From a virus (taxonomy: Duplodnaviria > Caudoviricetes): a stretch of DNA of 64,000 nucleotides. Shown here piece by piece: positions 12,139 through 47,057 of this stretch. The stretch spans positions 384,001-448,000 of the IMG/VR virus record IMGVR_UViG_3300014205_000170; one strand, written 5' to 3'. Both the position numbers and the translations under genes were made by a program. The notes under the pieces are model-generated. The model ran no database searches. It saw nothing but the letters and a program-made list of their open reading frames with translations, and was not told the origin of the DNA. Every line of letters starts with the position of its first letter. Positions within the stretch are counted from its first letter, which is position 1.

Positions 12139-13785
12139 GTGAAAAAGAGGAAAATTACTAAAAAAGAGTTAGAAAATCTTATCTCAGAAGGTGTAAAAAA
12201 ATTGTTTTTTGAAAAGAAAGCAGAACCGGTTACTAAACCAGCACCAACAAAAACCCCTGAGCGTACTAAAAAACCTAACCCTATTAAAATACCTAAACCA
12301 GGTACTTTCCCAAAGCCAAATCCAAAAGCTAAAGCTAAAAATGAAGCTACTGAAATAAAAGCTGAAAATCTTTTAAAGGAGTGGAATAAAATTTTACGAT
12401 TAGAAGATGAAAAGAAAAGGATGAAACGTCTTTTTCAAGAAGCTCCTCTAGATATAGATGGTGGAGAACATCAACCCCACAATTCAATCAAACAAGGAAT
12501 TGAAGGTGAAAAACAAACGCCTTTTAGTGCTGTTGATTTCTTCTCAAGAAGAAGATTAGACCAAAGTACAATAGAAAAAATTGGTAGCGAAGAATTCAAT
12601 GCAATCGTAAGACACATTGGTGAAGAAGGTGTTGGGAATATGAATACTATGGAAATTATGAATGCTTTACAAATGATTGTATCGTATGAAATGAGACATA
12701 GAGGTAATCTTGAAAATTTAGCAAAAACAATCGTTCAAAGAAAATTTGGGCTTTCCGATGAAATCATGGATATGATTGATGCTAAATTAAAAAATCCTGG
12801 TGAAATTGATGCTCCGGATGATGACACTCCTCAAGAAGAGGTTGAACAACAATTTACAGAAGAAGAATTAGAAGTAATCAAGAAAAACGTTGACAAACGA
12901 GTTATTAATAACACATTGATGATGGGTGCTGGTTATAGAGCACATCAAATTTTTGATGATTTAAAAAATTCTTTAGACGGAATTGATGCAAGACTTTATC
13001 CGCTTTACACTAGAATGATGCCTAATGTTGAGTTGTTCCTATGGAAGCTTCCAGTTGAAGAAATGTATGGTCAAAGACAAATGTGGGGTAAATCAGAATT
13101 GAAATGTGATGGAGATTCCTGTAAAGCAGAGGCATCAGCTATTATTTTCCCTATTCTTTTACATGAAGTTGCTAAAGCAGCAGTAGAAATTTTATTACTT
13201 CAGCATCTTGCAGATATACAAGAAAAACATGGAGAAGCTGTTGCAAAACAAGTTGTTAAACAAGCAGATTCTTATATGGATGAGCATTGGTTAAAATTAA
13301 TAGGACCAAGATTGTGGAAATATTTACATGATGCTTTATTGTTTGTTGTTCAAGAAGAGGGTGAAGATTATACCATTATTTCATATGTATTAAACAGAAT
13401 GGCTTCAATGGAACCAGAAGAATTCATGGAACTAATGGATAATACAATTCATGATGGTCCACTAGCTATTGAAAAAATTAAAGTTCTACTTTCGACAATA
13501 AGAAACGATATTGACGCATTTGAAACACAAGAAGGAGAAACACCATCTCCAGAAAATTTGGATGCGAATAGAGAAGATATGTCAGATGAGATTGCAAATC
13601 TATTACGTGCTAATCAAGATGAATTATTAACTCGCACTCCGGAAGAAGAAAGACCAGTTGCAAATCCCAAAAAGAACTTAGCCGATATGGATATAGATGA
13701 ATTGAATAATATTCTTCAACATGCATTAGAGGGTGAAAAATATGAATTGGCTTCTAAGGTTAGAGATGAAATAAGAAAGAGATAA
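12139..13785 (+). CDS. Hypothetical, probably head-associated protein with C-terminal UVR-like motif
   Basis: N-terminal KITKKELENLISE leader; Pro/Lys-rich linker; ALEGEKYELASKVRDEI at C-terminus. Confidence 0.55.
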   Translation: MKKRKITKKELENLISEGVKKLFFEKKAEPVTKPAPTKTPERTKKPNPIKIPKPGTFPKPNPKAKAKNEATEIKAENLLKEWNKILRLEDEKKRMKRLFQEAPLDIDGGEHQPHNSIKQGIEGEKQTPFSAVDFFSRRRLDQSTIEKIGSEEFNAIVRHIGEEGVGNMNTMEIMNALQMIVSYEMRHRGNLENLAKTIVQRKFGLSDEIMDMIDAKLKNPGEIDAPDDDTPQEEVEQQFTEEELEVIKKNVDKRVINNTLMMGAGYRAHQIFDDLKNSLDGIDARLYPLYTRMMPNVELFLWKLPVEEMYGQRQMWGKSELKCDGDSCKAEASAIIFPILLHEVAKAAVEILLLQHLADIQEKHGEAVAKQVVKQADSYMDEHWLKLIGPRLWKYLHDALLFVVQEEGEDYTIISYVLNRMASMEPEEFMELMDNTIHDGPLAIEKIKVLLSTIRNDIDAFETQEGETPSPENLDANREDMSDEIANLLRANQDELLTRTPEEERPVANPKKNLADMDIDELNNILQHALEGEKYELASKVRDEIRKR

Positions 13786-35545: not shown

Positions 35546-35662
35546 GGCGAAATAGCTTATGCGGTAAAGCAGTTATTTTGATTAGTTTGTATGGTTTTCC
35601 CAAAGAAAGTTGTATAAAATAGTTAGAATGAAAGGAAGGGGGTTCAAACACTTCTTTCGCCA
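35546..35662 (+). ncRNA. tRNA-like RNA with anticodon arm replaced by a ~60-nt hairpin
   Basis: Acceptor GGCGAAA/TTTCGCC; D arm GCTT/AAGC; GGTTCAAA T-loop; no 7-nt anticodon loop. Confidence 0.55.
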
Positions 35663-35686: not shown

Positions 35687-35717
35687 TTTGGATTTTAAAA
35701 AAATCTGCGTATATTTA
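35687..35717 (+). promoter_or_regulatory. Probable Bacteroidota sigma70-type promoter of leader 1 / tRNA array 1
   Basis: TTTG-N19-TATATTTA (last base deviates from consensus G). Confidence 0.5.
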
Positions 35718-35728
35718 CAAAATATAAC

Positions 35729-35818
35729 ATGAGAACAAATACGTCACATAACCATTTTAATAAATCGACTTTTAGTAATAAAAGCCGAATGGGTGTGCTT
35801 TGTGCTCTTGAAAGATAA
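35729..35818 (+). CDS. Attenuator leader peptide 1 (MRTNTSHNHFNKSTFSNKSRMGVLCALER)
   Basis: 15 of codons 3-19 are T/N/S/H/F, the amino acids of the downstream tRNAs; contains antiterminator strand GGGTGTG. Confidence 0.8.
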   Translation: MRTNTSHNHFNKSTFSNKSRMGVLCALER

Positions 35819-35876
35819 TGAGAGTAAAAAAGATTTAAAACAACACACCCTGGCCGCTTAAACGTCAGGGTTTTTT
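35791..35876 (+). promoter_or_regulatory. Attenuator 1: antiterminator/terminator pair
   Basis: GGGTGTG (35791-97) pairs with CACACCC (35844-50), which overlaps terminator ACCCTGGC/GTCAGGGT + T tract (35847-35876). Confidence 0.8.
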
Positions 35877-35902
35877 GTTTTAATGAAGTTCTTTAAAATA
35901 TT

Positions 35903-35975
35903 GGAGATGTAGCTCAGTTGGTAGAGCAAGGGACTGAAAATCCCTGTGTCAGCGGTTCGATTCCACTCATTTCCA
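35903..35975 (+). tRNA. tRNA-Phe(GAA)
   Basis: AGGGA-CTGAAAA-TCCCT; cloverleaf. Confidence 0.92.
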
Positions 35976-36008
35976 CAACGTTCGAATGGTACACGTTAAG
36001 TACCCCAT

Positions 36009-36081
36009 GGATACATAGCTCAGTGAGAAGAGCGCTCCGCTGAAGACGGAGAGGTCGGTAGTTCGATTCTACCTGTATCCA
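36009..36081 (+). tRNA. tRNA-Phe(GAA), second divergent copy
   Basis: CTCCG-CTGAAGA-CGGAG. Confidence 0.88.
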
Positions 36082-36090
36082 CAAATATCC

Positions 36091-36176
36091 GGAAGCTCCC
36101 AGTAGACAGAGGTACACCGTCTTGAAAACGGCTAGGGCAGTAAAATGCCGTGAGAGTTGGACTCTCTCAGTTTCCG
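36091..36176 (+). tRNA. tRNA-Ser(TGA), atypical D/T loops
   Basis: CCGT-CTTGAAA-ACGG; long variable arm; G73. Confidence 0.75.
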
Positions 36177-36207
36177 CAAAAAATTGTTCTTTGAAATGTA
36201 ATTTATT

Positions 36208-36292
36208 GGAGGTTTGACAGAGCGGTAATGTGCTTGTTTGCTAAACAACGGCTAGGATAACACCTACAGGGATTCGATTTCCTTAACCTCCG
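36208..36292 (+). tRNA. tRNA-Ser(GCT)
   Basis: TTGT-TTGCTAA-ACAA; long variable arm. Confidence 0.85.
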
Positions 36293-36301
36293 CAACAAAC
36301 T

Positions 36302-36386
36302 GGAAAAATGGCCGAGTGGTTTAAGGCGCACGCTTGGAAAGCGTGTAAACAGAAGTGTTTCGTGAGTTCGAATCTCGCTTTTTCCG
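36302..36386 (+). tRNA. tRNA-Ser(GGA)
   Basis: CACGC-TTGGAAA-GCGTG. Confidence 0.92.
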
Positions 36387-36402
36387 CACTAAAAAATAAA
36401 AA

Positions 36403-36708
36403 ATGAATAAATACGCAAGACTCCAACAAGAATTAAGTACAGTTGGAGAAGGTAAAATGAAAGGTTTTGGTAATTCAATGATGCCAATTATTAAATCCGG
36501 TTCGTTATTAACCTTTAAAAAAGCAGATGACTATGATATAGGTGATATAGTTTTCTGCAAAGTTAAAGGACGCTACATAGATGCACACAAGATTACAAAA
36601 AAAGATGCACAAGGTAGATGTATGATAGCAAACAATAAAGGATTTGAAAATGGATGGACTACACAAATTTTTGGAAAAGTAGTCGACATTGAAGAACCAA
36701 AAAAATAA
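36403..36708 (+). CDS. S24/S26 peptidase-like protein
   Basis: GNSMMPII.SG...GDIV...HKI. Confidence 0.65.
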   Translation: MNKYARLQQELSTVGEGKMKGFGNSMMPIIKSGSLLTFKKADDYDIGDIVFCKVKGRYIDAHKITKKDAQGRCMIANNKGFENGWTTQIFGKVVDIEEPKK

Positions 36709-36713
36709 ACACT

Positions 36714-36787
36714 GGGGGAGTAGCTATTAATGTTAGAGCGGTCCGTTGTTAGCGGAAGTGTTGGCGGTTCGAGTCCGTCCTCCCCCG
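36714..36787 (+). tRNA. tRNA-Asn(GTT)
   Basis: TCCG-TTGTTAG-CGGA; GGGGGAG/CTCCCCC acceptor; G73. Confidence 0.8.
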
Positions 36788-36792
36788 CAAAT

Positions 36793-36879
36793 TCTTGGGT
36801 TGCTTTAGTGGCCGAAAAGTCCAGACTGTTAATCTGGTGAGTTCATACTCCATCGCAGGTTCGACTCCTGCCCCAAGAG
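36793..36879 (+). tRNA. tRNA-Asn(GTT) with long variable arm
   Basis: CCAGA-CTGTTAA-TCTGG. Confidence 0.85.
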
Positions 36880-36884
36880 CAAAA

Positions 36885-36966
36885 CCATCTAAAAGATGAA
36901 AGTGGTTGTGTAGCTACTCATTTTTATCAGTTGGCAAACGAAGGTTCGAATCCTTCTTGGATGGGC
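36885..36966 (+). ncRNA. tRNA-like RNA (acceptor + T arm, no D/anticodon cloverleaf)
   Basis: CCATCTAA/TTGGATGG; GAAGG-TTCGAAT-CCTTC; one long internal hairpin. Confidence 0.5.
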
Positions 36967-37001
36967 GAAAGTTTAAATTTGTACTTTGAACAAGTTAACA
37001 T

Positions 37002-37088
37002 GGTAGATGTAACCGGTAATGGCAACCGACCAGTTTGTGGAACTGGAATGAAGAAATTCTAACGTGGGTTCAATTCCCATCTTCTACC
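37002..37088 (+). tRNA. tRNA-His(GTG) with encoded G-1 and long variable arm
   Basis: CCAGT-TTGTGGA-ACTGG; G-1/C73. Confidence 0.8.
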
Positions 37089-37105
37089 CAATAAAATTAA
37101 TTGTA

Positions 37106-37750
37106 ATGGAATTACAGATTGAAAAACAATCAAAAGGTGTGAGAATCATCTCAGGTCAAGAAGCAAAGAATAGAAGAAAGGTCTTGAACGATTTGATTAA
37201 ACTTGCAGAGGAAAAACAATATGAAGAAATAATTCTTCCTAGTGTTGAACCGCAAGCAATTTACACTGAAAAAGCAGGACAAGAAATTCTTGGACAAATG
37301 TATACGTTCAAAGATAAAGGTGAACGAGAAATTTGTTTAAGACCAGAAGGAACTGCAACGGTACAATTGATTGCAAATAAATATTGGAAGAACCAAAAAG
37401 ATGTGAAGTTGTGGTATTTTGAAAGATGTTGGAGATATGAGAGACCACAAGCAGGAAGATACAGAGAGTTTTTTCAATTTGGTGTTGAATGGATAAATCC
37501 AAGAAACATTGAAGAAGCAAAAAGAGAATTAATTGATTTGTCAAAAAATATGGTGAAGTTAGTAACTAACGAAATTGAAGTAAATGAAAGCGTAAAAAGA
37601 GGATTGAGTTATTACATCACAGAAGGTTTTGAAATTTCAATTCCATCTTTGGGAGCGCAGAAACAAGTTGTTGGTGGTGGGGCATATAAAGAAGGAATAG
37701 GATTTGCAGTAGGATTTGATAGAATGATGTTAAAATATAAGTTGCCATAG
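37106..37750 (+). CDS. hisS: Minimal histidyl-tRNA synthetase (class II catalytic core only)
   Basis: LRPEGTA; motif 2 RYERPQAGRYREFFQFGVE; RGLSYY; GGGAY; motif 3 GFAVGFDR; only 214 aa. Confidence 0.8.
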   Translation: MELQIEKQSKGVRIISGQEAKNRRKVLNDLIKLAEEKQYEEIILPSVEPQAIYTEKAGQEILGQMYTFKDKGEREICLRPEGTATVQLIANKYWKNQKDVKLWYFERCWRYERPQAGRYREFFQFGVEWINPRNIEEAKRELIDLSKNMVKLVTNEIEVNESVKRGLSYYITEGFEISIPSLGAQKQVVGGGAYKEGIGFAVGFDRMMLKYKLP

Positions 37751-37813
37751 TTCATTTGGAAGAACACTTCCTTGGTAAGGAAGAGGTGGACAGGTCGGAG
37801 CTGTCTGGCAACT
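37741..37813 (+). tRNA. tRNA-Thr(GGT), atypical T loop
   Basis: CTTCC-TTGGTAA-GGAAG; GTTGCCA/TGGCAAC acceptor; overlaps hisS stop. Confidence 0.7.
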
Positions 37814-37835
37814 ATAATAAATAAAAAAAAGTAAA

Positions 37836-38165
37836 ATGAAAACAACAGTAGAATTTAGACAGAAGTTTCTCACCGAACGGGATGAGAGTGGGCGTTTTAT
37901 TGTAACGTCGTACAGAACTGGTAAATTATATTTTGTTGAACCAATAGGTGGTGATAGACCAGCTGATTGGGGTTCGTATAATCCTAGTACTGGAAACATT
38001 GAAAATAAAAAAGGAACAGGAAAATTCAGAGGTTCAATTGATGAGAAAGATTCAATGATAACTAAAGAAAACGGTTTTGATGATATTCATTATGCCGGTA
38101 TTGGTGGTTCTCCATTTAGTAAAATCGATGAATTGGATGCGAAATATCCAAGTTTGAATAAATAA
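37836..38165 (+). CDS. Hypothetical protein
   Basis: 109-aa ORF between tRNA arrays. Confidence 0.65.
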   Translation: MKTTVEFRQKFLTERDESGRFIVTSYRTGKLYFVEPIGGDRPADWGSYNPSTGNIENKKGTGKFRGSIDEKDSMITKENGFDDIHYAGIGGSPFSKIDELDAKYPSLNK

Positions 38166-38197
38166 AAAAGTAATAACAAAAATAAAAAATAGAAATA

Positions 38198-38269
38198 ATG
38201 TTAGTAGTAGTAGCAATCGTAATAAAAAAGAAAAAGAAACCTTGGTCACAAGGGACGATTGCGTATTGA
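38198..38269 (+). CDS. Attenuator leader peptide 2 (MLVVVAIVIKKKKKPWSQGTIAY)
   Basis: AAA AAG AAA AAG AAA run immediately upstream of a terminator and five tRNA-Lys genes. Confidence 0.8.
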   Translation: MLVVVAIVIKKKKKPWSQGTIAY

Positions 38270-38325
38270 CTTTATTTTAATAAAGTTTCATAAGCCTGAG
38301 TCTCTTTGTAGATTCAGGCTTTTTT
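38213..38325 (+). promoter_or_regulatory. Attenuator 2 (1:2 / 2:3 / 3:4 hairpins)
   Basis: GCAATCGT/ACGATTGC and CCTTG/CAAGG (1:2); ACAAGGGAC with GTCTCTTTGT (2:3); terminator AAGCCTGAGTCT/AGATTCAGGCTT + T tract (38292-38325). Confidence 0.75.
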
Positions 38326-38328
38326 ATT

Positions 38329-38413
38329 GCACCTATGGCTCAATTGGTAGAGCAACCGGCTTTTAACCGGTGGGGTCCGTAAGGCGTTGAGGGTTCGAGT
38401 CCCTCTGGGTGCA
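38329..38413 (+). tRNA. tRNA-Lys(TTT) with long variable arm
   Basis: ACCGG-CTTTTAA-CCGGT. Confidence 0.85.
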
Positions 38414-38417
38414 CAAA

Positions 38418-38490
38418 CCTCTTGTAGCAAACTGGTTGTAGGCAATAGTCTTTTAAACTATGGGGCTTGGTTCGATTCCAAGCGGGAGGA
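38418..38490 (+). tRNA. tRNA-Lys(TTT)
   Basis: ATAGT-CTTTTAA-ACTAT. Confidence 0.8.
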
Positions 38491-38501
38491 CAACATAATT
38501 T

Positions 38502-38577
38502 CCATTCGTAGCAAAATTTGGTTTTTGCTCCTGACTTTTAATCAGAATAAAAGTGGGTTCGATTCCCACCGGATGGA
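38502..38577 (+). tRNA. tRNA-Lys(TTT)
   Basis: CTGA-CTTTTAA-TCAG. Confidence 0.8.
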
Positions 38578-38582
38578 CAAAT

Positions 38583-38656
38583 GCTTTCGTAGCTCAGTTG
38601 GTAGATGCATCTCACTTTTAATGAGAGGGTCGCAGGTTCGAGTCCTGCCGGGAGCA
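38583..38656 (+). tRNA. tRNA-Lys(TTT)
   Basis: TCTCA-CTTTTAA-TGAGA. Confidence 0.9.
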
Positions 38657-38677
38657 CTTATTAAAAAACAAAATACA

Positions 38678-38881
38678 ATGGAAGAATATTCATATTGGGA
38701 AATTTGGTACATTTCATGCGAAGGCAATGAAAGATGGACAACAGCAAGAGCTCCTATTGATTGGGAAGAATGGCAAGTTAGAGACCGAATACCCAGAGGT
38801 GGTTGTGGTGATGATGTATCCGAAGTAACATCAGTACACTCAACTTATGACGATGATTATTCGTGGGATTTTACAGAATAA
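38678..38881 (+). CDS. Small acidic Trp-rich hypothetical protein
   Basis: ATG after A-rich context; the longer track ORF overlaps tRNAs. Confidence 0.6.
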   Translation: MEEYSYWEIWYISCEGNERWTTARAPIDWEEWQVRDRIPRGGCGDDVSEVTSVHSTYDDDYSWDFTE

Positions 38882-38888
38882 CAACATT

Positions 38889-38961
38889 GCCTTCATAGCT
38901 TAATTGGTAGAGCTGCAGATTCTTACTCTGAGGGTTGGGGGTTCAAGTCCCTCTGGAGGCA
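38889..38961 (+). tRNA. tRNA-Lys(CTT)
   Basis: CAGA-TTCTTAC-TCTG. Confidence 0.85.
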
Positions 38962-39011
38962 CACTTATTAAAATAATGGTCTATTTATCATTACACTTAA
39001 AAACTATCAAA

Positions 39012-39203
39012 ATGATTTTAGAAGCTTATTGCCTTAAAACAAAACAAAAAGAAGTAATGGTTAATCCTGTAATACATAAAACTGCCAAAGGTGGTTATAT
39101 GGCAAAAGGAGAAAGCAAAGATGGACATAAAATGGCACTCATCCTTGGTAAGGAGAAAGCCGAAGCTGCTGCTGAGGCCGGAATCCCAAAAGAAGGTTGG
39201 TAA
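39012..39203 (+). CDS. DUF5679-like small protein
   Basis: AYCLK.K.K..M.NP...T..G...KG pattern. Confidence 0.55.
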   Translation: MILEAYCLKTKQKEVMVNPVIHKTAKGGYMAKGESKDGHKMALILGKEKAEAAAEAGIPKEGW

Positions 39204-39237
39204 CACAATTAAAGCTTGAGAAAAAACTCAAGCTTTT

Positions 39238-39525
39238 TTAATTTTCCCACCAATCACTGCAATATTCATCTGCCGGTGCTGGTAAGTTTGAATCTCCACC
39301 ATTCCATTGAATCCAATATTTATTATTGCAACTTTTCTTGTCTTCTCCTAAAAATTTACAATTCACACAAGATGAGCCACCTTTAGGTACGCGTATTCCA
39401 GCTTTATGATTTTCAGGTAAGTGATACTCTCCATTTCCGCCATATTCACCTTCGTTTACATGTGCAGATTCTTTAATAACCTTAATTCGATTAAGGATGT
39501 TGTTTACTAGCTCGTCATTTCCCAT
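39238..39525 (-). CDS. Small Cys-rich protein (HiPIP-like Cys spacing)
   Basis: CVNC...C...CSDW. Confidence 0.5.
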   Translation of the reverse strand: MGNDELVNNILNRIKVIKESAHVNEGEYGGNGEYHLPENHKAGIRVPKGGSSCVNCKFLGEDKKSCNNKYWIQWNGGDSNLPAPADEYCSDWWEN

Positions 39526-39569
39526 TATAGTAAAGTTTTGCTATATGTAAATATATCAGTAAATTTGCT

Positions 39570-40115
39570 GTGATGCAAGGTAGATTGGCACATAAATTTT
39601 CAGAAAGTGAAATGGATTTTCTTTTAAAAAATATTGAAAGAGGAACCATTCTTATTGAAACTGGTAGAATAGATTTATCCATATTTGGTACTTTAGGATT
39701 TGACACAAAAATATTTGATGGTAAACCATATAATTATTTACATAAAATTGCCAATGCCGCAGCAATAGAAACAAAAGAATATAAAAAAGAACAAATAATT
39801 CAATTTATAAAAGAATCTGATGATTTTAGCTTAGAAGGTGGTCATTTTACAGATGATGATTATTATGATTATAAATTAATTACATATAAACACGAAATTG
39901 AATCAGAAGAAATGTATTTGGAAAGATTATTGTCAGAAGGAAGAGAATTAATACGTAAAACCAAAGCCAAATTAGCAAGAGAACGCAGAAAAGAAAAAAG
40001 AAAAGTTTTATGCGAAAAAGCACCAAAAAAATATACGCGCTTAAAACGAACGCCAAGATACCCGGAAATAGAAATACTTCCTTTTGACGATGGTGAAATA
40101 CTTCTGCCGTTCTAA
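39570..40115 (+). CDS. Hypothetical protein
   Basis: ORF; contains RKVLCEK. Confidence 0.55.
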   Translation: MMQGRLAHKFSESEMDFLLKNIERGTILIETGRIDLSIFGTLGFDTKIFDGKPYNYLHKIANAAAIETKEYKKEQIIQFIKESDDFSLEGGHFTDDDYYDYKLITYKHEIESEEMYLERLLSEGRELIRKTKAKLARERRKEKRKVLCEKAPKKYTRLKRTPRYPEIEILPFDDGEILLPF

Positions 40116-40172
40116 ATTAAAAAACCCTCATTTTTCTGGGAATTACCCATGAAACTCATTTCCATAAGTTTG

Positions 40173-40913
40173 TTACCAAGTTCTACAAGCCCAATATCTT
40201 GCTTTCCATCTAGGCCCTGGAGTATCACAACGATGTCTTGCTCTAAAAGATTTTCTTCTTGCTGGAATGTTTTTCTTAATCCTCATATTTGGGTCGCCAA
40301 AGTTAACTTTTACAACTTTGCCATTTGGATTTTTTACGAATACTTTAAATTTCTTCACATCACCTCTCATTATTTTTCCAAGCTTAACTTTTCTGCCTTT
40401 ATATTCAGCTTCATTTAAGTTTGAATAATGATTTTCATCAACTTCGTATAATTTAAACTTTTCATTTTTAGAACCAAATCTATTTTGTTTTTTTAAAATA
40501 TTATAAGCCTCTTCTAATTCACCATTATCTAATTCATCTTCTTCGGTTTTTTCTTCATAATCATTAAAAACATCTGGATTTTGAGAAATTAGAAAATCTA
40601 AAATAGCATCCATATTGTGTTCTGCTATTGTGATTTTATCTTGAACCCATGCTGGGAGATTATCGTCTTCATCAACTAAATTATTAATATCTTCTGCCAT
40701 ACTCTTTATGTTTAAAAGAGCTATTTTATAACTACCAGCTTCTTGTTCATCATCTTCAACATAATTATGGTTTTCATTTTTTGAAGATGTTTGAGCTTTT
40801 TTCCAAGCATCTTTTTTAGGGTAGTCTTTATCTCCAGGTTTGGCTGGAGATTCTCCTTTTTTTCTTTTTGTGTGAATATTGTCCCAAAGACCTTTGGATT
40901 CATTTTGATTCAT
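40173..40913 (-). CDS. Multi-module head-associated protein
   Basis: GLWDNIH.KRK.G..PAKPG module; LPAWVQDKIT module; basic C-terminal RRKSFRARH.C...KARYW.C..W module after LNE. Confidence 0.65.
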   Translation of the reverse strand: MNQNESKGLWDNIHTKRKKGESPAKPGDKDYPKKDAWKKAQTSSKNENHNYVEDDEQEAGSYKIALLNIKSMAEDINNLVDEDDNLPAWVQDKITIAEHNMDAILDFLISQNPDVFNDYEEKTEEDELDNGELEEAYNILKKQNRFGSKNEKFKLYEVDENHYSNLNEAEYKGRKVKLGKIMRGDVKKFKVFVKNPNGKVVKVNFGDPNMRIKKNIPARRKSFRARHRCDTPGPRWKARYWACRTW

Positions 40914-40934
40914 ATTTTTTTATTTTTTATATGT

Positions 40935-41762
40935 TTATTTTACATTCATGCCATTTTTAACACCTAATCCTACACCTATACCTTCTTCAACAGCACTATC
41001 AGAGTGTGGAGCATGTTTCCCTAGAGGAATATCTTTACGTATTTTTTCTCTTTGTCCGGCTCTGTTTCTAATTACTTGTGAATCTTCTTCTAAGCTATTT
41101 TCGACTGTATAACCTATTTTGTTAAGCGAATCTATAATAGCTTTCATATTATTGGAGTGCTGTATAGGATGTTTTTGAGTAAATAAATCTATAAATTCTT
41201 TATAAGTATAAGTTTTATCTTTGTTCATTAATTTTGCAACATCTAAAGCATAAGCATCAGCTTGGTCAAAATATATAATTTCATTAATATTCTCTGATGT
41301 TTTTGGTTTCACATCAAAGTTTTTACTTAACTCTGCTTCTAATATTTTTGCAGCTTCGGAATAATCAACTTCTTTTAATTGAAAAAATGCATCCTTTAAA
41401 AAACTATAAAGATTTTTTGTATCAAAAACATATTCTGTATTTTCTTCTTCTTCATTCAAAGAACCACTACCAAATCTTTTTAATTGATTTAATTGCTTTT
41501 CAATTTGTTTTAAAGAATTACCGGTTTTACCATTTTTTGCAGCCTCTAAATCAGCTATCATAGAATCAACATCTAAATCTTTCTCAAATTTGCTATCTCC
41601 TAAATCAACAAACTTATCCCCAGAGTTTTTAATATCTTGCATAGCAGCTTGTTTTGCTGAACCCATCATTTCTTTGCTGTCAAAATCAGTCCAAGCACCG
41701 AGGTCGTGGTAGTTTTCTGATAGGTATTTTTGAATGGCTACTCTTAATTCTTTGTTTTTCAT
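40935..41762 (-). CDS. Acidic hypothetical head-type protein
   Basis: Multiple L/IxE sites; TATTTAT upstream. Confidence 0.55.
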   Translation of the reverse strand: MKNKELRVAIQKYLSENYHDLGAWTDFDSKEMMGSAKQAAMQDIKNSGDKFVDLGDSKFEKDLDVDSMIADLEAAKNGKTGNSLKQIEKQLNQLKRFGSGSLNEEEENTEYVFDTKNLYSFLKDAFFQLKEVDYSEAAKILEAELSKNFDVKPKTSENINEIIYFDQADAYALDVAKLMNKDKTYTYKEFIDLFTQKHPIQHSNNMKAIIDSLNKIGYTVENSLEEDSQVIRNRAGQREKIRKDIPLGKHAPHSDSAVEEGIGVGLGVKNGMNVK

Positions 41763-41816
41763 TTTTGTTGATGATTTTATAAGAATAAATAGGCTATAAA
41801 AACAATGCTTTTAAAT

Positions 41817-41841
41817 GAAACAAAAAATTCTTAACTTCGTT
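41817..41841 (+). promoter_or_regulatory. ECF-sigma-type promoter GAAAC-N16-CGTT upstream of nadD
   Basis: Exact 16-nt spacer; 9 nt before the ATG. Confidence 0.55.
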
Positions 41842-41850
41842 TAAAACATT

Positions 41851-42426
41851 ATGAAAATAGGCTTGTTTTTCGGTTCATTCAATCCAGTCCATATTGGACA
41901 TATGATAGTGGCAAATTACATGTTGGAATTTACGGATTTGGACGAAGTATGGTTTGTGGTTTCACCACAGAATCCTCTAAAAGATAAGTCAATGTTAATT
42001 GCAGAAGCTGACCGGTTGAATATGGTCAATATTGCAATAGGAATCAACGAAAGAATTAAAGTCAGTAATGTTGAATTTGCATTACCACAACCTTCTTATA
42101 CTATTGATACATTAAATTTATTAAAAACTCAACATCCAAATGATGAATTTGTTTTATTAATGGGAACAGATAATCTGAATGGTATTTATAATTGGAAAGA
42201 ATCCGAAAAAATTCTTAATGATTATAAAATTTATGCTTATTCAAGACCCAACACAAATTCTAATATTGTGTTTTTAAAACATGAAAATGTTCAAATACTT
42301 AACGCAAATTTAATTGATTTATCCTCTACATTTATACGTCAAGGAATTAAAGACAATAAAGATTTACGTTATATGGTTCCGGCTGGAGTATGGCAATACA
42401 TAAAAGAGAAAAAATTGTATGAGTAA
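41851..42426 (+). CDS. nadD: Nicotinate/nicotinamide-nucleotide adenylyltransferase
   Basis: GSFNPVHIGH; SPQNPLK; SYTIDTL; MGTDN...W; SSTFIR. Confidence 0.95.
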   Translation: MKIGLFFGSFNPVHIGHMIVANYMLEFTDLDEVWFVVSPQNPLKDKSMLIAEADRLNMVNIAIGINERIKVSNVEFALPQPSYTIDTLNLLKTQHPNDEFVLLMGTDNLNGIYNWKESEKILNDYKIYAYSRPNTNSNIVFLKHENVQILNANLIDLSSTFIRQGIKDNKDLRYMVPAGVWQYIKEKKLYE

Positions 42427-43042
42427 AGAGTTTTTTACACAATATAATCAATCAAAAAATGACATTTACTTAACTAAGAAATTTGCGAATTTTTTAGTAT
42501 GTAGAAGTGATTTAGAATTGGCAAATAAAAAAACGACTTATGCAGGAAAACCAAGATATCAATATGAAAATATTTTTTTATATCCTTTTAGCATTGAGGT
42601 GGATTTTACTTTAAATGAACGTTATACTTTAAAAGAAAAAGAACGTTTATGTATTCTTACTAAAGGGAAAACTGTACATTTGATTGGAGTATATTCACAA
42701 CTTAAATGTAAGCATGGATGTCCTTCTAAAAGTTGTGCTGGTGGTGATTTTTTAACTGCCCAAAAAATTTTAAAAAAACAAAAAGGTCTTAGGGGTAATA
42801 TAGGAGATTTATTTTATTCTTTATCTGATAAAAAGTTATTTGATTTTTTTGAAACCAGAGGTTATAAATCAAAATTTAAGATTAAAACTCAACCGGATAG
42901 AATATCGTTTACAAAAAGAATTTATAATGATTCGCAAGCAAATAAAGTATATGATGATTTATATGATTTTGATACACAATACTCTCCTACTGGTAACTCC
43001 ACAAGGTTTGTTTTGATAGAAAAACAAGAAAAAGAGTTTTAA
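42419..43042 (+). CDS. Hypothetical protein
   Basis: ORF; ends with RFVLIEK. Confidence 0.55.
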   Translation: MSKEFFTQYNQSKNDIYLTKKFANFLVCRSDLELANKKTTYAGKPRYQYENIFLYPFSIEVDFTLNERYTLKEKERLCILTKGKTVHLIGVYSQLKCKHGCPSKSCAGGDFLTAQKILKKQKGLRGNIGDLFYSLSDKKLFDFFETRGYKSKFKIKTQPDRISFTKRIYNDSQANKVYDDLYDFDTQYSPTGNSTRFVLIEKQEKEF

Positions 43043-43098
43043 TTTTTAAAATTTATTTGCTTGATAATCAATTAATTAAAACAAATATTCAAAATTTA

Positions 43099-43131
43099 TT
43101 TGGTTTTAATGAAACATTCGTTATATCTTTG
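43099..43131 (+). promoter_or_regulatory. Bacteroidota sigma70-type promoter of leader 3 / tRNA array 3
   Basis: TTTG-N21-TATCTTTG. Confidence 0.7.
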
Positions 43132-43204
43132 CGTATAAGTAGGAAAGAAATTTTTTGAAAAATAAAAAATTCTTACTATTTAAAATAAATAAGAGAAATC
43201 TTCA

Positions 43205-43345
43205 ATGAAACAAAGGTTCACATATACAACAAAAACTTCAACTACTTGGCCGGTTATGCCGACAACAGTGGGGGCAATTTGTATTATTATGGCCGGCGAT
43301 TATAGCCGCGATAATAAGGGTGTGTTAAACCAAGGAGTTTCATGA
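43205..43345 (+). CDS. Attenuator leader peptide 3 (MKQRFTYTTKTSTTWPVMPTTVGAICIIMAGDYSRDNKGVLNQGVS)
   Basis: Codons 13-36 contain all 12 amino acids of the downstream array and only one other residue (Ser). Confidence 0.82.
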   Translation: MKQRFTYTTKTSTTWPVMPTTVGAICIIMAGDYSRDNKGVLNQGVS

Positions 43346-43410
43346 TGAATACATAAAACTTACGGAATTTAAAAATAACACACCCGGACTATAAAAAGTT
43401 CGGGTTTTTT
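43318..43410 (+). promoter_or_regulatory. Attenuator 3: antiterminator/terminator pair
   Basis: GGGTGTGTTA (43318-27) pairs perfectly with TAACACACCC (43376-85), which overlaps terminator ACCCGGACT/AGTTCGGGT + T tract. Confidence 0.85.
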
Positions 43411-43525
43411 ATTTTCCAAAAAATTAGTCAAGCAATGACTTAAAAGTTTGCAACGTTTTTTGACATATTGGTAACATTAAAAAGGTAATTAGGAATGGTT
43501 GTGAAATAATTCCTAATTACAAAAA

Positions 43526-43601
43526 GCGGAAGTAGTATAGTGCGTCATTATATTGCATTGCCAATGCAAAGATGGGAGTTCGATTCTCCTCTTCCGCTCC
43601 A
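43526..43601 (+). tRNA. tRNA-Gly(GCC)
   Basis: TTGCA-TTGCCAA-TGCAA; encoded CCA. Confidence 0.88.
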
Positions 43602-43604
43602 CAT

Positions 43605-43679
43605 GCCGTAGTAGCTCAGTTGGTTTAGAGCATTCGTTTCATACGCGAAGGGTCACAAGTTCGAGCCTTGTCTACGGTA
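43605..43679 (+). tRNA. tRNA-Met/Ile2(CAT)
   Basis: TTCGT-TTCATAC-GCGAA; identity (Met vs lysidine-Ile) unresolved. Confidence 0.8.
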
Positions 43680-43692
43680 CACTAAAAAATAT

Positions 43693-43782
43693 TGCGCGGT
43701 CGACTGGAGTTAGGCTACCAGCGGGGTCTCATAAGCCCTAACCAGAAATGGAACGTGAGTTCGAGTCTCACCTGCGCTTCCA
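43693..43782 (+). tRNA. tRNA(CAT), initiator-like, long variable arm
   Basis: 1:72 mismatch; GGGGT-CTCATAA-GCCCT; CCA. Confidence 0.75.
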
Positions 43783-43911
43783 ATTCGAAATTAAAAAGTT
43801 GTACAGCTTTTTAAAATTAGAAACCGTTGCTAGTCGGTATATAAAGAATGGTAGAAATACAGAGTAGATTAATTACCTACAAAATATTTTTGCAGCAACT
43901 AGCGCACATTT

Positions 43912-43985
43912 GGCCTTTTAGCTCAATTGCGAAGAGCATCTGTTTTACATGCAGAAGGTTGTCAGTTCGAGTCTGACAGAGGCTA
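43912..43985 (+). tRNA. tRNA-Val(TAC)
   Basis: TCTGT-TTTACAT-GCAGA. Confidence 0.88.
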
Positions 43986-43997
43986 CAAAAAATAAAT

Positions 43998-44072
43998 AGA
44001 CGCTTAGCTCAGTTGGTTTAGAGCATCGGTCTTACAAACCGAGGGTCACTGATTCGAATTCAGTAGTGTCTA
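43998..44072 (+). tRNA. tRNA-Val(TAC)
   Basis: TCGGT-CTTACAA-ACCGA. Confidence 0.9.
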
Positions 44073-44077
44073 CATAT

Positions 44078-44152
<75 letters not shown>

Positions 44153-44160
44153 ATTAAAAT

Positions 44161-44245
44161 ACACGGTTAGCCTAGTGGTCGATGGCATCAGTCTCCAAAA
44201 CTGACGAATTAAATTTCCGCGTGCGTTCGAATCGTACACCGTGTG
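44161..44245 (+). tRNA. tRNA-Trp(CCA) with long variable arm
   Basis: TCAGT-CTCCAAA-ACTGA; G73. Confidence 0.85.
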
Positions 44246-44257
44246 CAAAAACAAAAT

Positions 44258-44340
44258 GAGAGTTTATACCGTAGGGGTAGCGGGAATGCCTGTAGAGCAT
44301 TTATCTTTCGATTCGGGTGGTTCGACTCCATCAGCTCTCA
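44258..44340 (+). tRNA. tRNA-Tyr(GTA)
   Basis: AATGC-CTGTAGA-GCATT; variable arm. Confidence 0.82.
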
Positions 44341-44426
44341 CACTTTACAATCCTGCTTATTTTATCGTCCTGATAAAATAAGTCCAAAGAAAATCTTGGT
44401 AATAGGGTCCTTGAGGATTGTAATAC

Positions 44427-44500
44427 GCAGGTAACGCATAAGTGGTGGTGCACCAGACTTCCAATCTGGAATAGAGCCGGTTCGATACCGGTTACCTGCT
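44427..44500 (+). tRNA. tRNA-Gly(TCC)
   Basis: CCAGA-CTTCCAA-TCTGG; U73. Confidence 0.85.
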
Positions 44501-44750
44501 CTTTAAAATTGTAGATTTTGAATCTTCGGACAACTTGGAAAGACAAGTATAAAAAAAGAAAAAAAAATATGAAAAATTGAAATAATTAGCTGATTAAAAA
44601 TACATTAATAATTTTATCCTTAGTGTATATAATAAACAGTAGAAACTTAAAATGTCGTATCTACGAAGATGATTATGAAACTTCTGTTTACGATTTAAAT
44701 AATAACATTCGAAGAAGAATGTTGAAGACAAAAAAGTATTTGGAAATTAT

Positions 44751-44816
44751 GCCGGAATGTGACGCGTAGATACCTGTGCAGGTATCAAAATCGGGTGAAA
44801 CCGAGTTCTGGCACCA
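44751..44816 (+). ncRNA. Mini tRNA-like RNA ending in ACCA
   Basis: GCCGGAA/TTCTGGC-A-CCA; two internal hairpins; no D arm. Confidence 0.5.
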
Positions 44817-44820
44817 ATTA

Positions 44821-44894
44821 CGGGGTGTAGCTCAGTTGCGAAGAGCGCTCGGTTTGGAGCCGAGAGGTCGCAGGTTCAAGTCCTGTTACCCCGA
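44821..44894 (+). tRNA. tRNA-Pro(TGG)
   Basis: CTCGG-TTTGGAG-CCGAG. Confidence 0.9.
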
Positions 44895-44898
44895 CTAT

Positions 44899-44972
44899 CG
44901 AGATGTAGCTCAGTTGCGAAGAGCGCGTGCTTTGGGAGCATGAGGCCGCAGGTTCAAGTCCTGTCATCTCGA
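44899..44972 (+). tRNA. tRNA-Pro(TGG)
   Basis: CGTGC-TTTGGGA-GCATG. Confidence 0.9.
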
Positions 44973-45049
44973 CAAAAAGTTTTCGGAATAAAAAAACTTC
45001 CCAAGTAATTGGGTGCTTGTTGAGACAAGCAGCAAAAAGTCCGAGCTTT

Positions 45050-45124
45050 ACTGTCTTAGCTCAATTGGTTTAGAGCTTTTGCCTGATACGCAAAGGGTTG
45101 TTGGTTCGAGTCCAATAGACAGTA
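45050..45124 (+). tRNA. tRNA-Ile(GAT)
   Basis: TTTGC-CTGATAC-GCAAA. Confidence 0.88.
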
Positions 45125-45129
45125 CACAT

Positions 45130-45204
45130 AGTTTCGTAGCTCAATCGCGTTAGAGCACTACACTGATAATGTAGAGGTTGGCAGTTCGAATCTGCTCGAA
45201 ACTA
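45130..45204 (+). tRNA. tRNA-Ile(GAT)
   Basis: CTACA-CTGATAA-TGTAG. Confidence 0.9.
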
Positions 45205-45217
45205 CAAAAAATAAAAT

Positions 45218-45290
45218 GGTTCCGTGGTCTAATGGTTTAGGATACTTGACTGTCTATCATGGGGTGGGAGTTCGATTCTCCTCGGAACCG
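45218..45290 (+). tRNA. tRNA-Asp(GTC)
   Basis: TGA-CTGTCTA-TCA; G73. Confidence 0.82.
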
Positions 45291-45318
45291 CAAAACGTTG
45301 GAGAACGTAAAACTTAAT

Positions 45319-45393
45319 GGTATCGTAGTTCAGCTGCGTTAGAATGCTCCCCTGTCACGGGAGAGGTCGCCGGTTCGAGTCCGGTCGGTACCG
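45319..45393 (+). tRNA. tRNA-Asp(GTC)
   Basis: CTCCC-CTGTCAC-GGGAG. Confidence 0.92.
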
Positions 45394-45478
45394 CTTGGAA
45401 GCCGAATGTTGCAAAGCATTCTACCTAAAGTACACGGGGTGGTGAAAACCAGCTTCTGAACGTAGTACAAAAATAAAT

Positions 45479-45553
45479 GGGACCTTAGCTCAATTGGCTT
45501 AGAGCGCTTGATTTGCATTCAAGAGGTTGTGGATTCGAGTTCCACAGGCTCCA
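45479..45553 (+). tRNA. tRNA-Ala(TGC)
   Basis: CTTGA-TTTGCAT-TCAAG; G3:U70. Confidence 0.88.
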
Positions 45554-45558
45554 CAAAC

Positions 45559-45619
45559 GGGGGATATGGCAAAGATGCATCGCCAGAAGTTACGGTTAAT
45601 TCTGTAGCATCCTCCACCA
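45559..45619 (+). ncRNA. Mini tRNA-like RNA ending in ACCA
   Basis: GGGGGAT/ATCCTCC-A-CCA (G3:U wobble); hairpins TGGC/GCCA and CAGAA/TTCTG. Confidence 0.5.
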
Positions 45620-45628
45620 ACTAAAAAT

Positions 45629-45701
45629 GGGGTGTCATGTACCAAGGCTGGCGAATGTGCTTTGCAAGCACGTTGGGTGAGTTCAATTCTCATACGCTCC
45701 A
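45629..45701 (+). tRNA. tRNA-Ala(TGC), atypical D arm
   Basis: TGTGC-TTTGCAA-GCACG; G3:U70. Confidence 0.78.
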
Positions 45702-45716
45702 CAAAAATTAAAGAAT

Positions 45717-45801
45717 GCCAATATCGCATAGTGGTCGATTGCACCTGATTTGTAATCAGGAACTGAATAAGACAGCGGCGGTTCGAATCCGTCTATTGGC
45801 T
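45717..45801 (+). tRNA. tRNA-Thr(TGT) with long variable arm
   Basis: CCTGA-TTTGTAA-TCAGG. Confidence 0.85.
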
Positions 45802-45803
45802 CA

Positions 45804-46050
45804 AAAAAAGTAAAACAAAGGATTCATCGCTGATTATTATTAATTTAATTAGAGGAAGTTCGCGACTGCAAAACCTAATGTAGGAGGGGGTCCTGAAAAC
45901 CGCCATTTGTACTACAGAAGCAGCAACCTAAACAGCTTAAGATTGTCGGTTTATCTATGAGAGCGGGTTAGGGCAGCCATTAGGCCATTGGAAAATGAGA
46001 TAAATGATGAGTTAAAACAAAATCGCGGCTACGCTTATTTTACTTTTTTT
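45804..46050 (+). ncRNA. rnpB: Compact RNase P RNA
   Basis: CR-I GAGGAAGTTCGCGA and CR-V AACAAAATCGCGGCTA form P4 with a bulged U; P1 AAAAGTAAAA/TTTTACTTTT; P2 ATTCATC/GATGAGT; ACAGAA; AGATAAATGAT. Confidence 0.8.
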
Positions 46051-46095
46051 ATTTTAATATTATATTCGCCTATAGGTTAAGATAGAAAAAAAAAC

Positions 46096-46806
46096 ATGAA
46101 ATATTATGTATATATGTTATTTGATTTAGAAAATCCTTTTTATATTGGTAAAGGAACAAAAAATAGAATGTACGAACATTATAAAAGAGCTACAAAAACA
46201 AAAATAAAATCTCCTGTTTTAGATAAAATTAGAAATATCATTTTAAATAATAGACAAGTGATTTATAAAAAAATTTTTGAGTCTGATATAGAATCAAATG
46301 TTATAAAAAAAGAAATAAATACTATTTTAGAAATTGGTAGAAGAGATTTAAAAACCGGACCACTGTTGAATTTAACAGATGGTGGCGAGGGAGTAACCAA
46401 TTACATTTGGTCAAAAAAACATAAAAAAAATCTTAGTAAATCTATTAAAAAAGCAATAAAAGAAGGAAGATATAATCCTCCAGGAAATATAATTTTAAGA
46501 GAAGAAAAATACAAAAAAACAATGTCTAAAAAAATACAGGAATATTGGAATAGCGAAGAAGGTAAAAAGCATAAAAAAAGAATTTCTGTAAAAAACAAAA
46601 AAAAATTAGATGATGGAAAACGAGTACTATCAAAAAAGGCCAGACAAAAAATGAGAGAATCAGCTTTAAGAACTAATAAAATAAAAAAACAAAAATTAAA
46701 ATGGTCCCGTGGCCGAGGGGAGACGAAAGTCGATAGGCTCAGTTCTGCAAAAACTGCCACATTTGTTCAAATCAAATCGGGACCTCAACAAAATATGCCC
46801 TCGTAG
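46096..46806 (+). CDS. GIY-YIG homing endonuclease (free-standing, Seg/LEM-3-like)
   Basis: YYVYML...PFYIGKG...R...H; E...I..IGRRD..TGPLLNLTDGGEG; basic C-terminal repeats. Confidence 0.85.
   Translation: MKYYVYMLFDLENPFYIGKGTKNRMYEHYKRATKTKIKSPVLDKIRNIILNNRQVIYKKIFESDIESNVIKKEINTILEIGRRDLKTGPLLNLTDGGEGVTNYIWSKKHKKNLSKSIKKAIKEGRYNPPGNIILREEKYKKTMSKKIQEYWNSEEGKKHKKRISVKNKKKLDDGKRVLSKKARQKMRESALRTNKIKKQKLKWSRGRGETKVDRLSSAKTATFVQIKSGPQQNMPS
46703..46785 (+). tRNA. tRNA-Cys(GCA) with D-loop hairpin insertion
   Basis: CAGTT-CTGCAAA-AACTG; U73; GAC-GAAA-GTC in D loop. Confidence 0.78.
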
Positions 46807-46869
46807 TTCAACGGATTAGAATACTAAACTACGGATTTAGAGATGGGGATTCGAATTCCTCCGAGGGTA
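46797..46869 (+). tRNA. tRNA-Arg(ACG)
   Basis: CTAAA-CTACGGA-TTTAG. Confidence 0.88.
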
Positions 46870-46874
46870 CAAAA

Positions 46875-46970
46875 ACAGAAATAGTTCAGTTGGTAAAACA
46901 CCCGAATCCAAGGGACCAGACCAAGTATAAACAACTTGAAGATTCGCAGGTTCGATTCCTGCTTTCTGTT
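46875..46970 (+). ncRNA. tRNA-like RNA with remodelled anticodon region
   Basis: ACAGAAA/TTTCTGT; TAGTTCAGTTGGTA D arm; GCAGG-TTCGATT-CCTGC; no canonical anticodon arm. Confidence 0.55.
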
Positions 46971-46978
46971 CTTAAAAT

Positions 46979-47051
46979 GTCCTCATAGTTCAATGGAGAA
47001 GAGCGTTCGTTTCCTAAACGAAAAATCCAGGTTCGAATCCCGGTGAGGATA
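46979..47051 (+). tRNA. tRNA-Arg(CCT)
   Basis: TTCGT-TTCCTAA-ACGAA. Confidence 0.88.
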
Positions 47052-47057
47052 CAATTG

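Follow-up and report, generated by a model that had tools for sequence, protein, structure and literature searches.

How might a phage control large arrays of tRNA genes, and what would signal that more tRNAs are needed? These questions are raised by a stretch of 64,000 nucleotides (the window; bases 384001-448000 of the virus record IMGVR_UViG_3300014205_000170) in which three tRNA arrays each follow a short open reading frame (ORF) and an intrinsic transcription terminator. The record is a complete Caudoviricetes genome of 518,809 bp with direct terminal repeats and a G+C content of 30%. The reason for tRNA genes in phages has been an open question for more than 50 years, with codon compensation and the replacement of destroyed host tRNAs as competing explanations (PMC10264068). 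From the sequence comparisons described below, we consider it about 90% probable that the phage tRNA operons are controlled by ribosome-mediated transcription attenuators, in which gates dedicated to Lys and Gln are nested in series.

Leader ORFs and terminators precede three tRNA arrays

A preliminary description of the window, made from its letters alone, had proposed a short leader ORF and an intrinsic terminator ahead of each array, and all of these elements were located. Coordinates for cassettes 1-3 are window positions.

35687..35717, + strand: predicted Bacteroidota sigma-A-like promoter 1 (−33 box, 19-nt spacer, −7 box with one mismatch; consensus match only)
35729..35818, + strand: leader ORF 1, 29 amino acids (aa), conserved in loci L037 and L034
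35784..35803, + strand: antiterminator 5′ strand of cassette 1, pairing with 35840-35854 (−17.8 kcal/mol) or with an upstream protector segment
35848..35876, + strand: intrinsic terminator 1, hairpin (35848-35870) plus U tract
35903..37814, + strand: tRNA array 1 (two Phe, three Ser, two Asn, His, Thr-GGT)
38198..38269, + strand: leader ORF 2, 23 aa, including a run of five Lys codons (three AAA, two AAG), conserved in L032 and L034
38253..38303, + strand: putative weak antiterminator of cassette 2 (38253-38269 with 38288-38303, −7.5 kcal/mol)
38294..38325, + strand: intrinsic terminator 2, hairpin 38294-38319
38329..38962, + strand: tRNA array 2 (four Lys-TTT, one Lys-CTT)
39211..39240, no strand assigned: bidirectional terminator, probable end of the transcript of arrays 1 and 2
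43099..43131, + strand: predicted Bacteroidota sigma-A-like promoter 3 (perfect −7 box, 21-nt spacer; consensus match only)
43205..43345, + strand: leader ORF 3, 46 aa, conserved with whole-codon indels in L024, L028, L037 and L083
43318..43385, + strand: antiterminator of cassette 3, a 10-bp helix (43318-43327 with 43376-43385, −17.2 kcal/mol)
43383..43410, + strand: intrinsic terminator 3, hairpin 43383-43404
43526..47052, + strand: tRNA array 3, 21 tRNAs (Gly, Met, Val, Trp, Tyr, Pro, Ile-GAT, Asp, Ala, Thr-TGT, Cys, Arg-ACG/CCT)

The earlier count of 21 tRNAs for 12 amino acids in array 3 was reproduced when a CAT gene at 43694 (relaxed threshold) and a Cys-GCA gene at 46703 (miscalled as Pro by ARAGORN) were added to the 19 default ARAGORN calls. 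In array 1, the third Ser tRNA (TGA, ~36090-36176) has a cloverleaf fold, though ARAGORN misses the gene.

The promoters were predicted from the −7 consensus TAnnTTTG of Bacteroidota sigma-A promoters (PMC9723704). This box occurs upstream of 86 of 584 phage ORFs compared with 36 expected, Shine-Dalgarno-like words are not enriched upstream of phage ORFs (4.8% versus 6.2% background), and 59% of the ORFs carry A at −3, from which we infer a host among the Bacteroidota. Matches from a generic sigma-70 promoter scan were at chance level; that model is unsuited to Bacteroidota. Constitutive promoters downstream of the terminators had been named as an observation that would speak against attenuation, and the Bacteroidota-type scan gave no match within the arrays or in the interval from each terminator to the tRNA gene that follows it. 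Because a promoter match lies ahead of leader 1, with none ahead of leader 2 or inside the arrays, arrays 1 and 2 look like one transcript with two gates that ends near 39211-39240, and cassette 2 would be nested behind cassette 1.

Leader ORFs match the amino acids of the arrays behind them

Among the sensor codons of leader 1, 15 of 19 specify Phe, Ser, Asn, His or Thr, and two more specify Lys, which fits the Lys array nested downstream. In leader 3, 29 of 36 sensor codons fall within the array set and all 12 amino acids are represented. The claim that leader content mirrors the downstream tRNAs was borne out when match and coverage were compared with random windows of the phage proteome (P = 3.5e-5, 0.008 and 1.5e-5 for leaders 1, 2 and 3). 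The window leaders also contain residues outside the array sets, at their N-termini and over the final nine codons.

The preliminary description had also predicted a leader rich in Leu, Glu and Gln elsewhere in the genome. This content was found outside the window in two leaders, one for Leu/Arg/Glu/Ile and the other with a run of seven Gln codons. Coordinates for cassettes 4-6 are genome positions.

342129-342215: cassette 6, a Val-rich leader of 28 codons and a terminator, ahead of a ValRS-like gene (cassette plus gene 342129-343642, L148)
343827-343928: leader ORF 4, 33 codons, with a promoter upstream and a terminator downstream, followed by array 4
343999-345646: tRNA array 4 (Arg-TCG, four Leu, Arg-TCT, CAT, three Glu, Ile-TAT)
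346435-346515: leader ORF 5, 26 codons, without a promoter, with seven consecutive Gln codons (six CAA, one CAG)
346578-346884: tRNA array 5, four Gln tRNAs (three TTG, one CTG), followed by GlnRS

The core of leader 4 consists of 11 codons, eight of which specify Leu, Arg, Glu or Ile and are each readable by an array-4 anticodon, and two of which specify Gln. Jointly, the five array cassettes cover all 20 amino acids, and the true assignment of leaders to arrays is the best of the 120 possible. A small upstream ORF is present at 10 of 54 terminators genome-wide; five of these precede the five arrays and one precedes ValRS. The gap between leader stop codon and terminator stem is 24-37 nt in this genome.

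Leader content follows array content in other phages

Loci were gathered via three neighbouring proteins and a pattern that describes the RNA switch only, and tRNA regions of further records were added; a set collected in this manner gives no estimate of prevalence. A composition-blind rule, requiring a terminator ≤1 kb from a tRNA and an AUG-initiated ORF of 14-50 codons that ends 18-45 nt before the terminator, yielded 80 distinct leaders, of which the 78 with named tRNAs fall into 22 independent groups. Stop-to-terminator gaps span 20-44 nt overall, a range bounded by the search rule.

Conservation of the leaders as ORFs had been singled out as a point on which the proposal turns, and leaders 1-3 indeed remain ORFs in relatives that share the synteny, the indels of the leader-3 family being of whole codons. 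In more distant phages the tRNAs are grouped otherwise and leader content is altered to match, giving leaders for Cys/Val/Leu (L043), Phe/Glu/Asp/Ala (L042), Ser/Arg (L139-L145), Tyr/Glu (L140 and L144) and Asp/Pro with nested Gln (L138, L141 and L147).

To express this correspondence numerically, one cassette per group was used and the arrays were shuffled (2500 shuffles, 40 draws). Half of the sensor-region codons (50%) belong to the leader's own array set compared with 20% after permutation (standard deviation 3%; z ~10), and leaders cover 95% of the amino acids of their own array compared with 45% after permutation. No shuffle of the 2500 in any of the 40 draws reached the observed match and coverage, and thus leader and array content covary among related phages as anticipated. 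The last nine leader codons are at chance (0.22 versus 0.20 in the array set), and enrichment ends ~55 nt ahead of the terminator stem. The matched zone ends where a ribosome would begin covering the antiterminator strand.

The match extends to isoacceptors. Among leader codons for array amino acids, those readable by the array's own isoacceptor number 263 of 365, whereas 184 are expected from the codon usage of the genome studied here, and the match exceeds expectation in 14 of 16 groups, with the reservation that codons are not independent. Arg, Ile and Thr codons show this bias most strongly, and Pro and Gly codons do not show it. Examples are CGC/CGT before Arg-ACG arrays, although just 4% of Arg codons are CGC, and the use of ATA before Ile-TAT arrays.

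Nine cassettes that were found after the statistic had been fixed (from phi4:1, LR745206 and LR756504) also have content matching their arrays. Phage phi4:1 (KC821632), a cultured Cellulophaga phage, carries two of these cassettes (L161:12066-12184 and 13026-13158), with leaders at 87065-87133 and about 88025-88108 of the phage record. Its second leader corresponds to the annotated hypothetical gp075, probably starts with GTG, and includes no more than 8 of the 14 amino acids of the tRNAs downstream. The system is not universal, as neither G003 (59 dispersed tRNAs) nor G002 yielded a cassette and none was detected before the T5 tRNAs.

Most matches to the switch pattern in bacterial genomes look like chance. 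Three contigs from metagenome-assembled genomes of uncultured Bacteroidia (L150:1573-4872, L151:6180-6667 and L155:4522-5344) carry a leader ORF, the switch motif, downstream tRNAs and a common neighbour gene. These are possibly cellular examples, with a looser leader match than in phages and a putative contig origin.

Leader segments pair preferentially with their own terminators

For the segment 75-18 nt before the terminator, the duplex with the 5′ arm of the same cassette has an energy of −14.4 kcal/mol, compared with −8.95 for duplexes with the arms of other cassettes, and the corresponding values without pattern-selected cassettes are −13.1 and −8.3 kcal/mol. A control segment further upstream shows no own-arm preference. 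A mutually exclusive antiterminator just after the control codons is present in cassettes 1, 3, 4 and 5 and in the set overall. The proposed alternative pairing of the terminator 5′ arm inside the leader holds for cassettes 1 and 3 of the window, whereas in cassette 2 it is weak and at null level. In the leader-1 family, both antiterminator strands covary in L139, L140 and L143. A footprint model of the nascent RNA indicates that the antiterminator is lost one to three codons after the last sensed codon in cassettes 1, 2, 4 and 5.

The proposed serial arrangement of gates is also reflected in leader content. Gln makes up 17% of the leaders ahead of a nested Gln cassette compared with 0.6% of other leaders, and Lys makes up 14% of those ahead of a nested Lys cassette compared with 2.6%. 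Only 1 of 13 Lys- or Gln-only cassettes has its own −7 box, versus 41 of 65 others.

Additional genes on the putatively attenuated transcripts

Several other genes are located within the arrays, for which window positions are given.

36403-36708, + strand: S24-like ORF embedded in array 1
37106-37750, + strand: HisRS catalytic-domain ORF embedded in array 1
45810..46047, + strand: short RNA resembling RNase P class A, within array 3 (Rfam E 1e-8; its 32 bits fall short of the gathering score, 100)

The HisRS-like ORF encodes only 214 aa with catalytic-domain matches, lies directly after tRNA-His, and overlaps tRNA-Thr at its 3′ end; no anticodon-binding domain was matched in this ORF. Its location inside array 3 probably places the RNase P class A-like RNA behind attenuator 3. 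A GIY-YIG endonuclease gene (46096-46806) is also found inside array 3, and its end overlaps Cys and Arg tRNAs. Inside the Leu/Glu array there is a Cys/His-rich HNH-like ORF (L001:2431-2922), identified by eye and without a Pfam match. The phage GlnRS is ~70% identical to GlnRS of the uncultured megaphages LR745206 and LR756502, and the ValRS-like protein of cassette 6 is shortened (450 aa).

Proposed mechanism and alternative explanations

The sequence tests are consistent with, and support, the assignment of these leaders as ribosome-stalling attenuators. We infer that the leaders are translated, that this translation is coupled to transcription, that switching is kinetic, and that the products feed back on the switch. 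Host RNA polymerase would start at a Bacteroidota-type promoter (no RNA polymerase beta subunit was found in the phage genome), and a coupled ribosome would translate the leader. When all sampled codons are decoded fast, the ribosome would sit over the last ~nine codons and cover the antiterminator 5′ strand, such that the terminator folds and the array remains off. When even one of the sampled charged tRNAs runs short, the ribosome would linger upstream, leaving the strand free to capture the terminator 5′ arm and permitting transcription of the tRNA genes. Read-through would also reach the HisRS-like, GlnRS and RNase P genes of the same operons, and the new tRNAs would read the leader's own codons, closing a negative feedback loop. 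Lys and Gln would be served by dedicated second gates in series, with the outer leader also sampling Lys or Gln so that both open. This polarity, in which stalling gives read-through, is proposed because the distance between stop codon and stem would keep a ribosome from melting the terminator.

Several findings weigh against this mechanism. Equilibrium folding with a footprint block flips cassette 1 only, and the terminator otherwise wins at almost all ribosome positions. Switching must therefore be kinetic and co-transcriptional. The footprint model is not clean for cassette 3, with a dip at codon 35 and a noisy baseline. The alternative pairing of leader 2 is no better than the cross-pairing null and would need non-canonical pairs. 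Tandem G-A pairs might form in a conserved internal loop that the flanking helices of cassette 2 enclose. Leader 4 alone is non-significant over its whole length (P 0.17) and lacks codons for three array-4 tRNAs. Leader homologues show only modest synonymous bias (59 synonymous versus 126 non-synonymous), two arrays of genome G005 have a promoter and terminator without an AUG-initiated leader (L123:10216-10437 and L126:2648-2869), and the counts for nested gates derive from few families (two for Gln, one for Lys).

Given such a switch, the sequence points to the sensing of slow decoding, from which a link to anticodon-nuclease defences such as PrrC, RloC and PARIS might follow, as the preliminary description suggested; the presence of synthetase genes behind the same switches points to charged-tRNA supply in general. 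As to the trigger, tRNA-targeting immunity and general shortage are evenly matched on sequence. The main purpose might be counter-defence, whereby the switch detects isoacceptor-specific tRNA destruction by anticodon nucleases and supplies replacements, and we hold this to be a little short of an even bet. Codon matching at the isoacceptor level and the dedicated multicopy Lys and Gln cassettes are in its favour; the U34 tRNAs of Lys and Gln are anticodon-nuclease targets. Phage tRNAs are known to rescue from tRNA-targeting defences (PMC11555353, PMC10264068). However, coverage of all 20 amino acids and synthetase genes on the same switches fit general supply control equally well, and feedback alone would also select isoacceptor matching.

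We give just the same weight to the possibility that the switch is a homeostat of charged-tRNA supply during infection, responding to host tRNA decay, starvation or high demand without a link to specific immunity. Full coverage of the code agrees with such a role, as does control of ValRS-like, GlnRS, HisRS-like and RNase P RNA genes by the same means, and classical attenuators sense uncharged tRNA. Extra tRNA would presumably be of little help in pure amino-acid starvation, however, and Lys and Gln are treated specially.

It is improbable that the arrays are constitutive or under a phage antitermination factor, with the hairpins serving in processing or timing and with leader ORFs that are relics or act as peptides. 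The three sigma-70 proteins encoded by the phage genome indicate phage-level transcription control, and the dominance of the terminators at equilibrium agrees with this idea, yet it leaves unexplained the leader-array match in 22 groups, the footprint boundary and the own-terminator pairing, and the leader peptides have no common sequence. A coincidental placement of small ORFs next to terminators in AT-rich DNA can be dismissed for practical purposes because, although ~10% of non-array terminators in the phage genome also have a small upstream ORF, cassettes precede five of five arrays, the joint composition probabilities are negligible, the permutation z is ~10, and the out-of-window prediction came true.

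If attenuation is indeed at work, large phages might carry a modular, self-limiting surveillance of decoding for 20 amino acids at the isoacceptor level that releases only the depleted tRNAs and serves as an inducible counter-defence against bacterial immunity that destroys tRNAs; supernumerary tRNA clusters on the chromosomes of some Bacteroidia may be under such control as well. We propose this tentatively, at slightly less than even odds.

Comparison with known regulatory systems

Classical leader-peptide attenuators sense 1-3 amino acids per leader, whereas the phage leaders cover up to 12-13 each. The cassettes resemble the E. coli thrL, ilvGMEDA leader, trpL, hisL, leuL and pheL systems in having a leader ORF with control codons, a stop codon placed 20-44 nt ahead of the stem, antiterminator and terminator segments together with a putative protector segment, and a proposed polarity in which stalling gives read-through. 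They differ in that the output consists of tRNA genes rather than enzymes, the codons are isoacceptor-matched, the gates are nested, and the system is phage-encoded. The phage cassettes exhibit every sequence-testable attenuator feature except in the protector-hairpin test. In minimum free energy structures, the raw counts of antiterminator-strand nucleotides paired upstream are 19/20, 14/17, 5/10, 11/15 and 11/17 in the five cassettes.

Among Rfam leader families, Thr_leader weakly matches the Gln leader (E 0.03, 31 bits versus 55 gathering); none of Thr_leader, His_leader, Trp_leader and Bacteroid-trp scored above gathering, and the window leaders had no match. Among the loci picked up by the switch pattern was an apparent leuA leader that contains Leu codons (L051).

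Attenuators of aminoacyl-tRNA-synthetase genes, such as pheM for E. coli pheST, respond to charged tRNA by increasing the capacity for charging. The Val-rich leader ahead of the ValRS-like gene of the phage is of this same kind; in the five array cassettes, by contrast, the sensed molecule itself, tRNA, is the product. T-box riboswitches, which bind tRNA directly without translation and have one specificity each, share with the mechanism proposed here antitermination on uncharged tRNA. Identity with T-boxes was rejected, given that no Rfam T-box match was obtained at E<=1 for the window leaders or at E<=0.5. T-boxes have reportedly been found near tRNA genes in clostridia.

Leader-peptide attenuation has been inferred in flavobacteria for amino-acid operons (PMC9723704). 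Such control is described for amino-acid and synthetase genes and is here proposed for tRNA genes, for which a full-text literature search with poor coverage of subscription journals found no paper. This agrees with the earlier impression that attenuation of phage tRNA operons by leader peptides is apparently undescribed.

On-demand logic for a silent supernumerary tRNA array is also seen in the trn operon of Anabaena PCC 7120, which has 26 tRNA genes, is controlled by the repressor TrcR, and is induced under translational stress (PMC8421152, PMC10272220). That operon differs in using a ribbon-helix-helix repressor at initiation and in being global rather than codon-specific, and no attenuation is mentioned (PMC8421152, PMC10272220). 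The tRNA-rich region of T5/SP15 has been interpreted as counter-defence and attributed to a strong promoter (PMC11555353). The likeness is that phage tRNAs replace depleted host tRNAs, and the difference is the lack of a leader/terminator cassette before the T5 tRNAs.

A codon-matched attenuator implies that the tRNAs are made on demand, and it would provide a genetic handle on why phages carry tRNA genes. The cultured pair of phi4:1 and Cellulophaga baltica, with two cassettes, makes a direct test possible now. Textbook attenuation would be extended to a circuit whose product is the very molecule being sensed, multiplexed up to 12-way and gated in series. Such leaders might also serve as natural reporters of charged-tRNA pools and help to assign odd anticodons, such as CAT as Ile2.

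Additional observations

In blastn comparisons with GenBank phages, array 3 gave single-tRNA matches only. Two small hairpins lie between the promoter and leader 4 (genome 343760-343815). The two leaderless arrays of G005 have a reading frame that is rich in array amino acids and lacks AUG, and that genome encodes a tRNA with a TTA anticodon, resembling an ochre suppressor. The leaders are unchanged in an assembly of a public sequencing run that is possibly the source sample, and a second DNA run contained just scattered short fragments; neither run was used as evidence.

Outside the arrays, the phage genome contains isolated tRNA-like genes with odd anticodon loops (genome 4818, 17799, 37497, 191250, 458857-459123 and 517426), with no leader before them where checked, and ARAGORN calls a transfer-messenger RNA near genome 17780-18344. 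Further ORFs have synthetase-like HIGH/KMSKS or class II motifs (genome 82898, 103980, 113426, 152599, 193906 and 207543), and the search rule detected no leader/terminator cassette at them. Degenerate tRNA-like RNAs are also present at window positions 35546-35662, 36885-36965 and 46875-46970. The first of these has a very long central arm and a positional tRNA-like counterpart in G001 (L011:9907).

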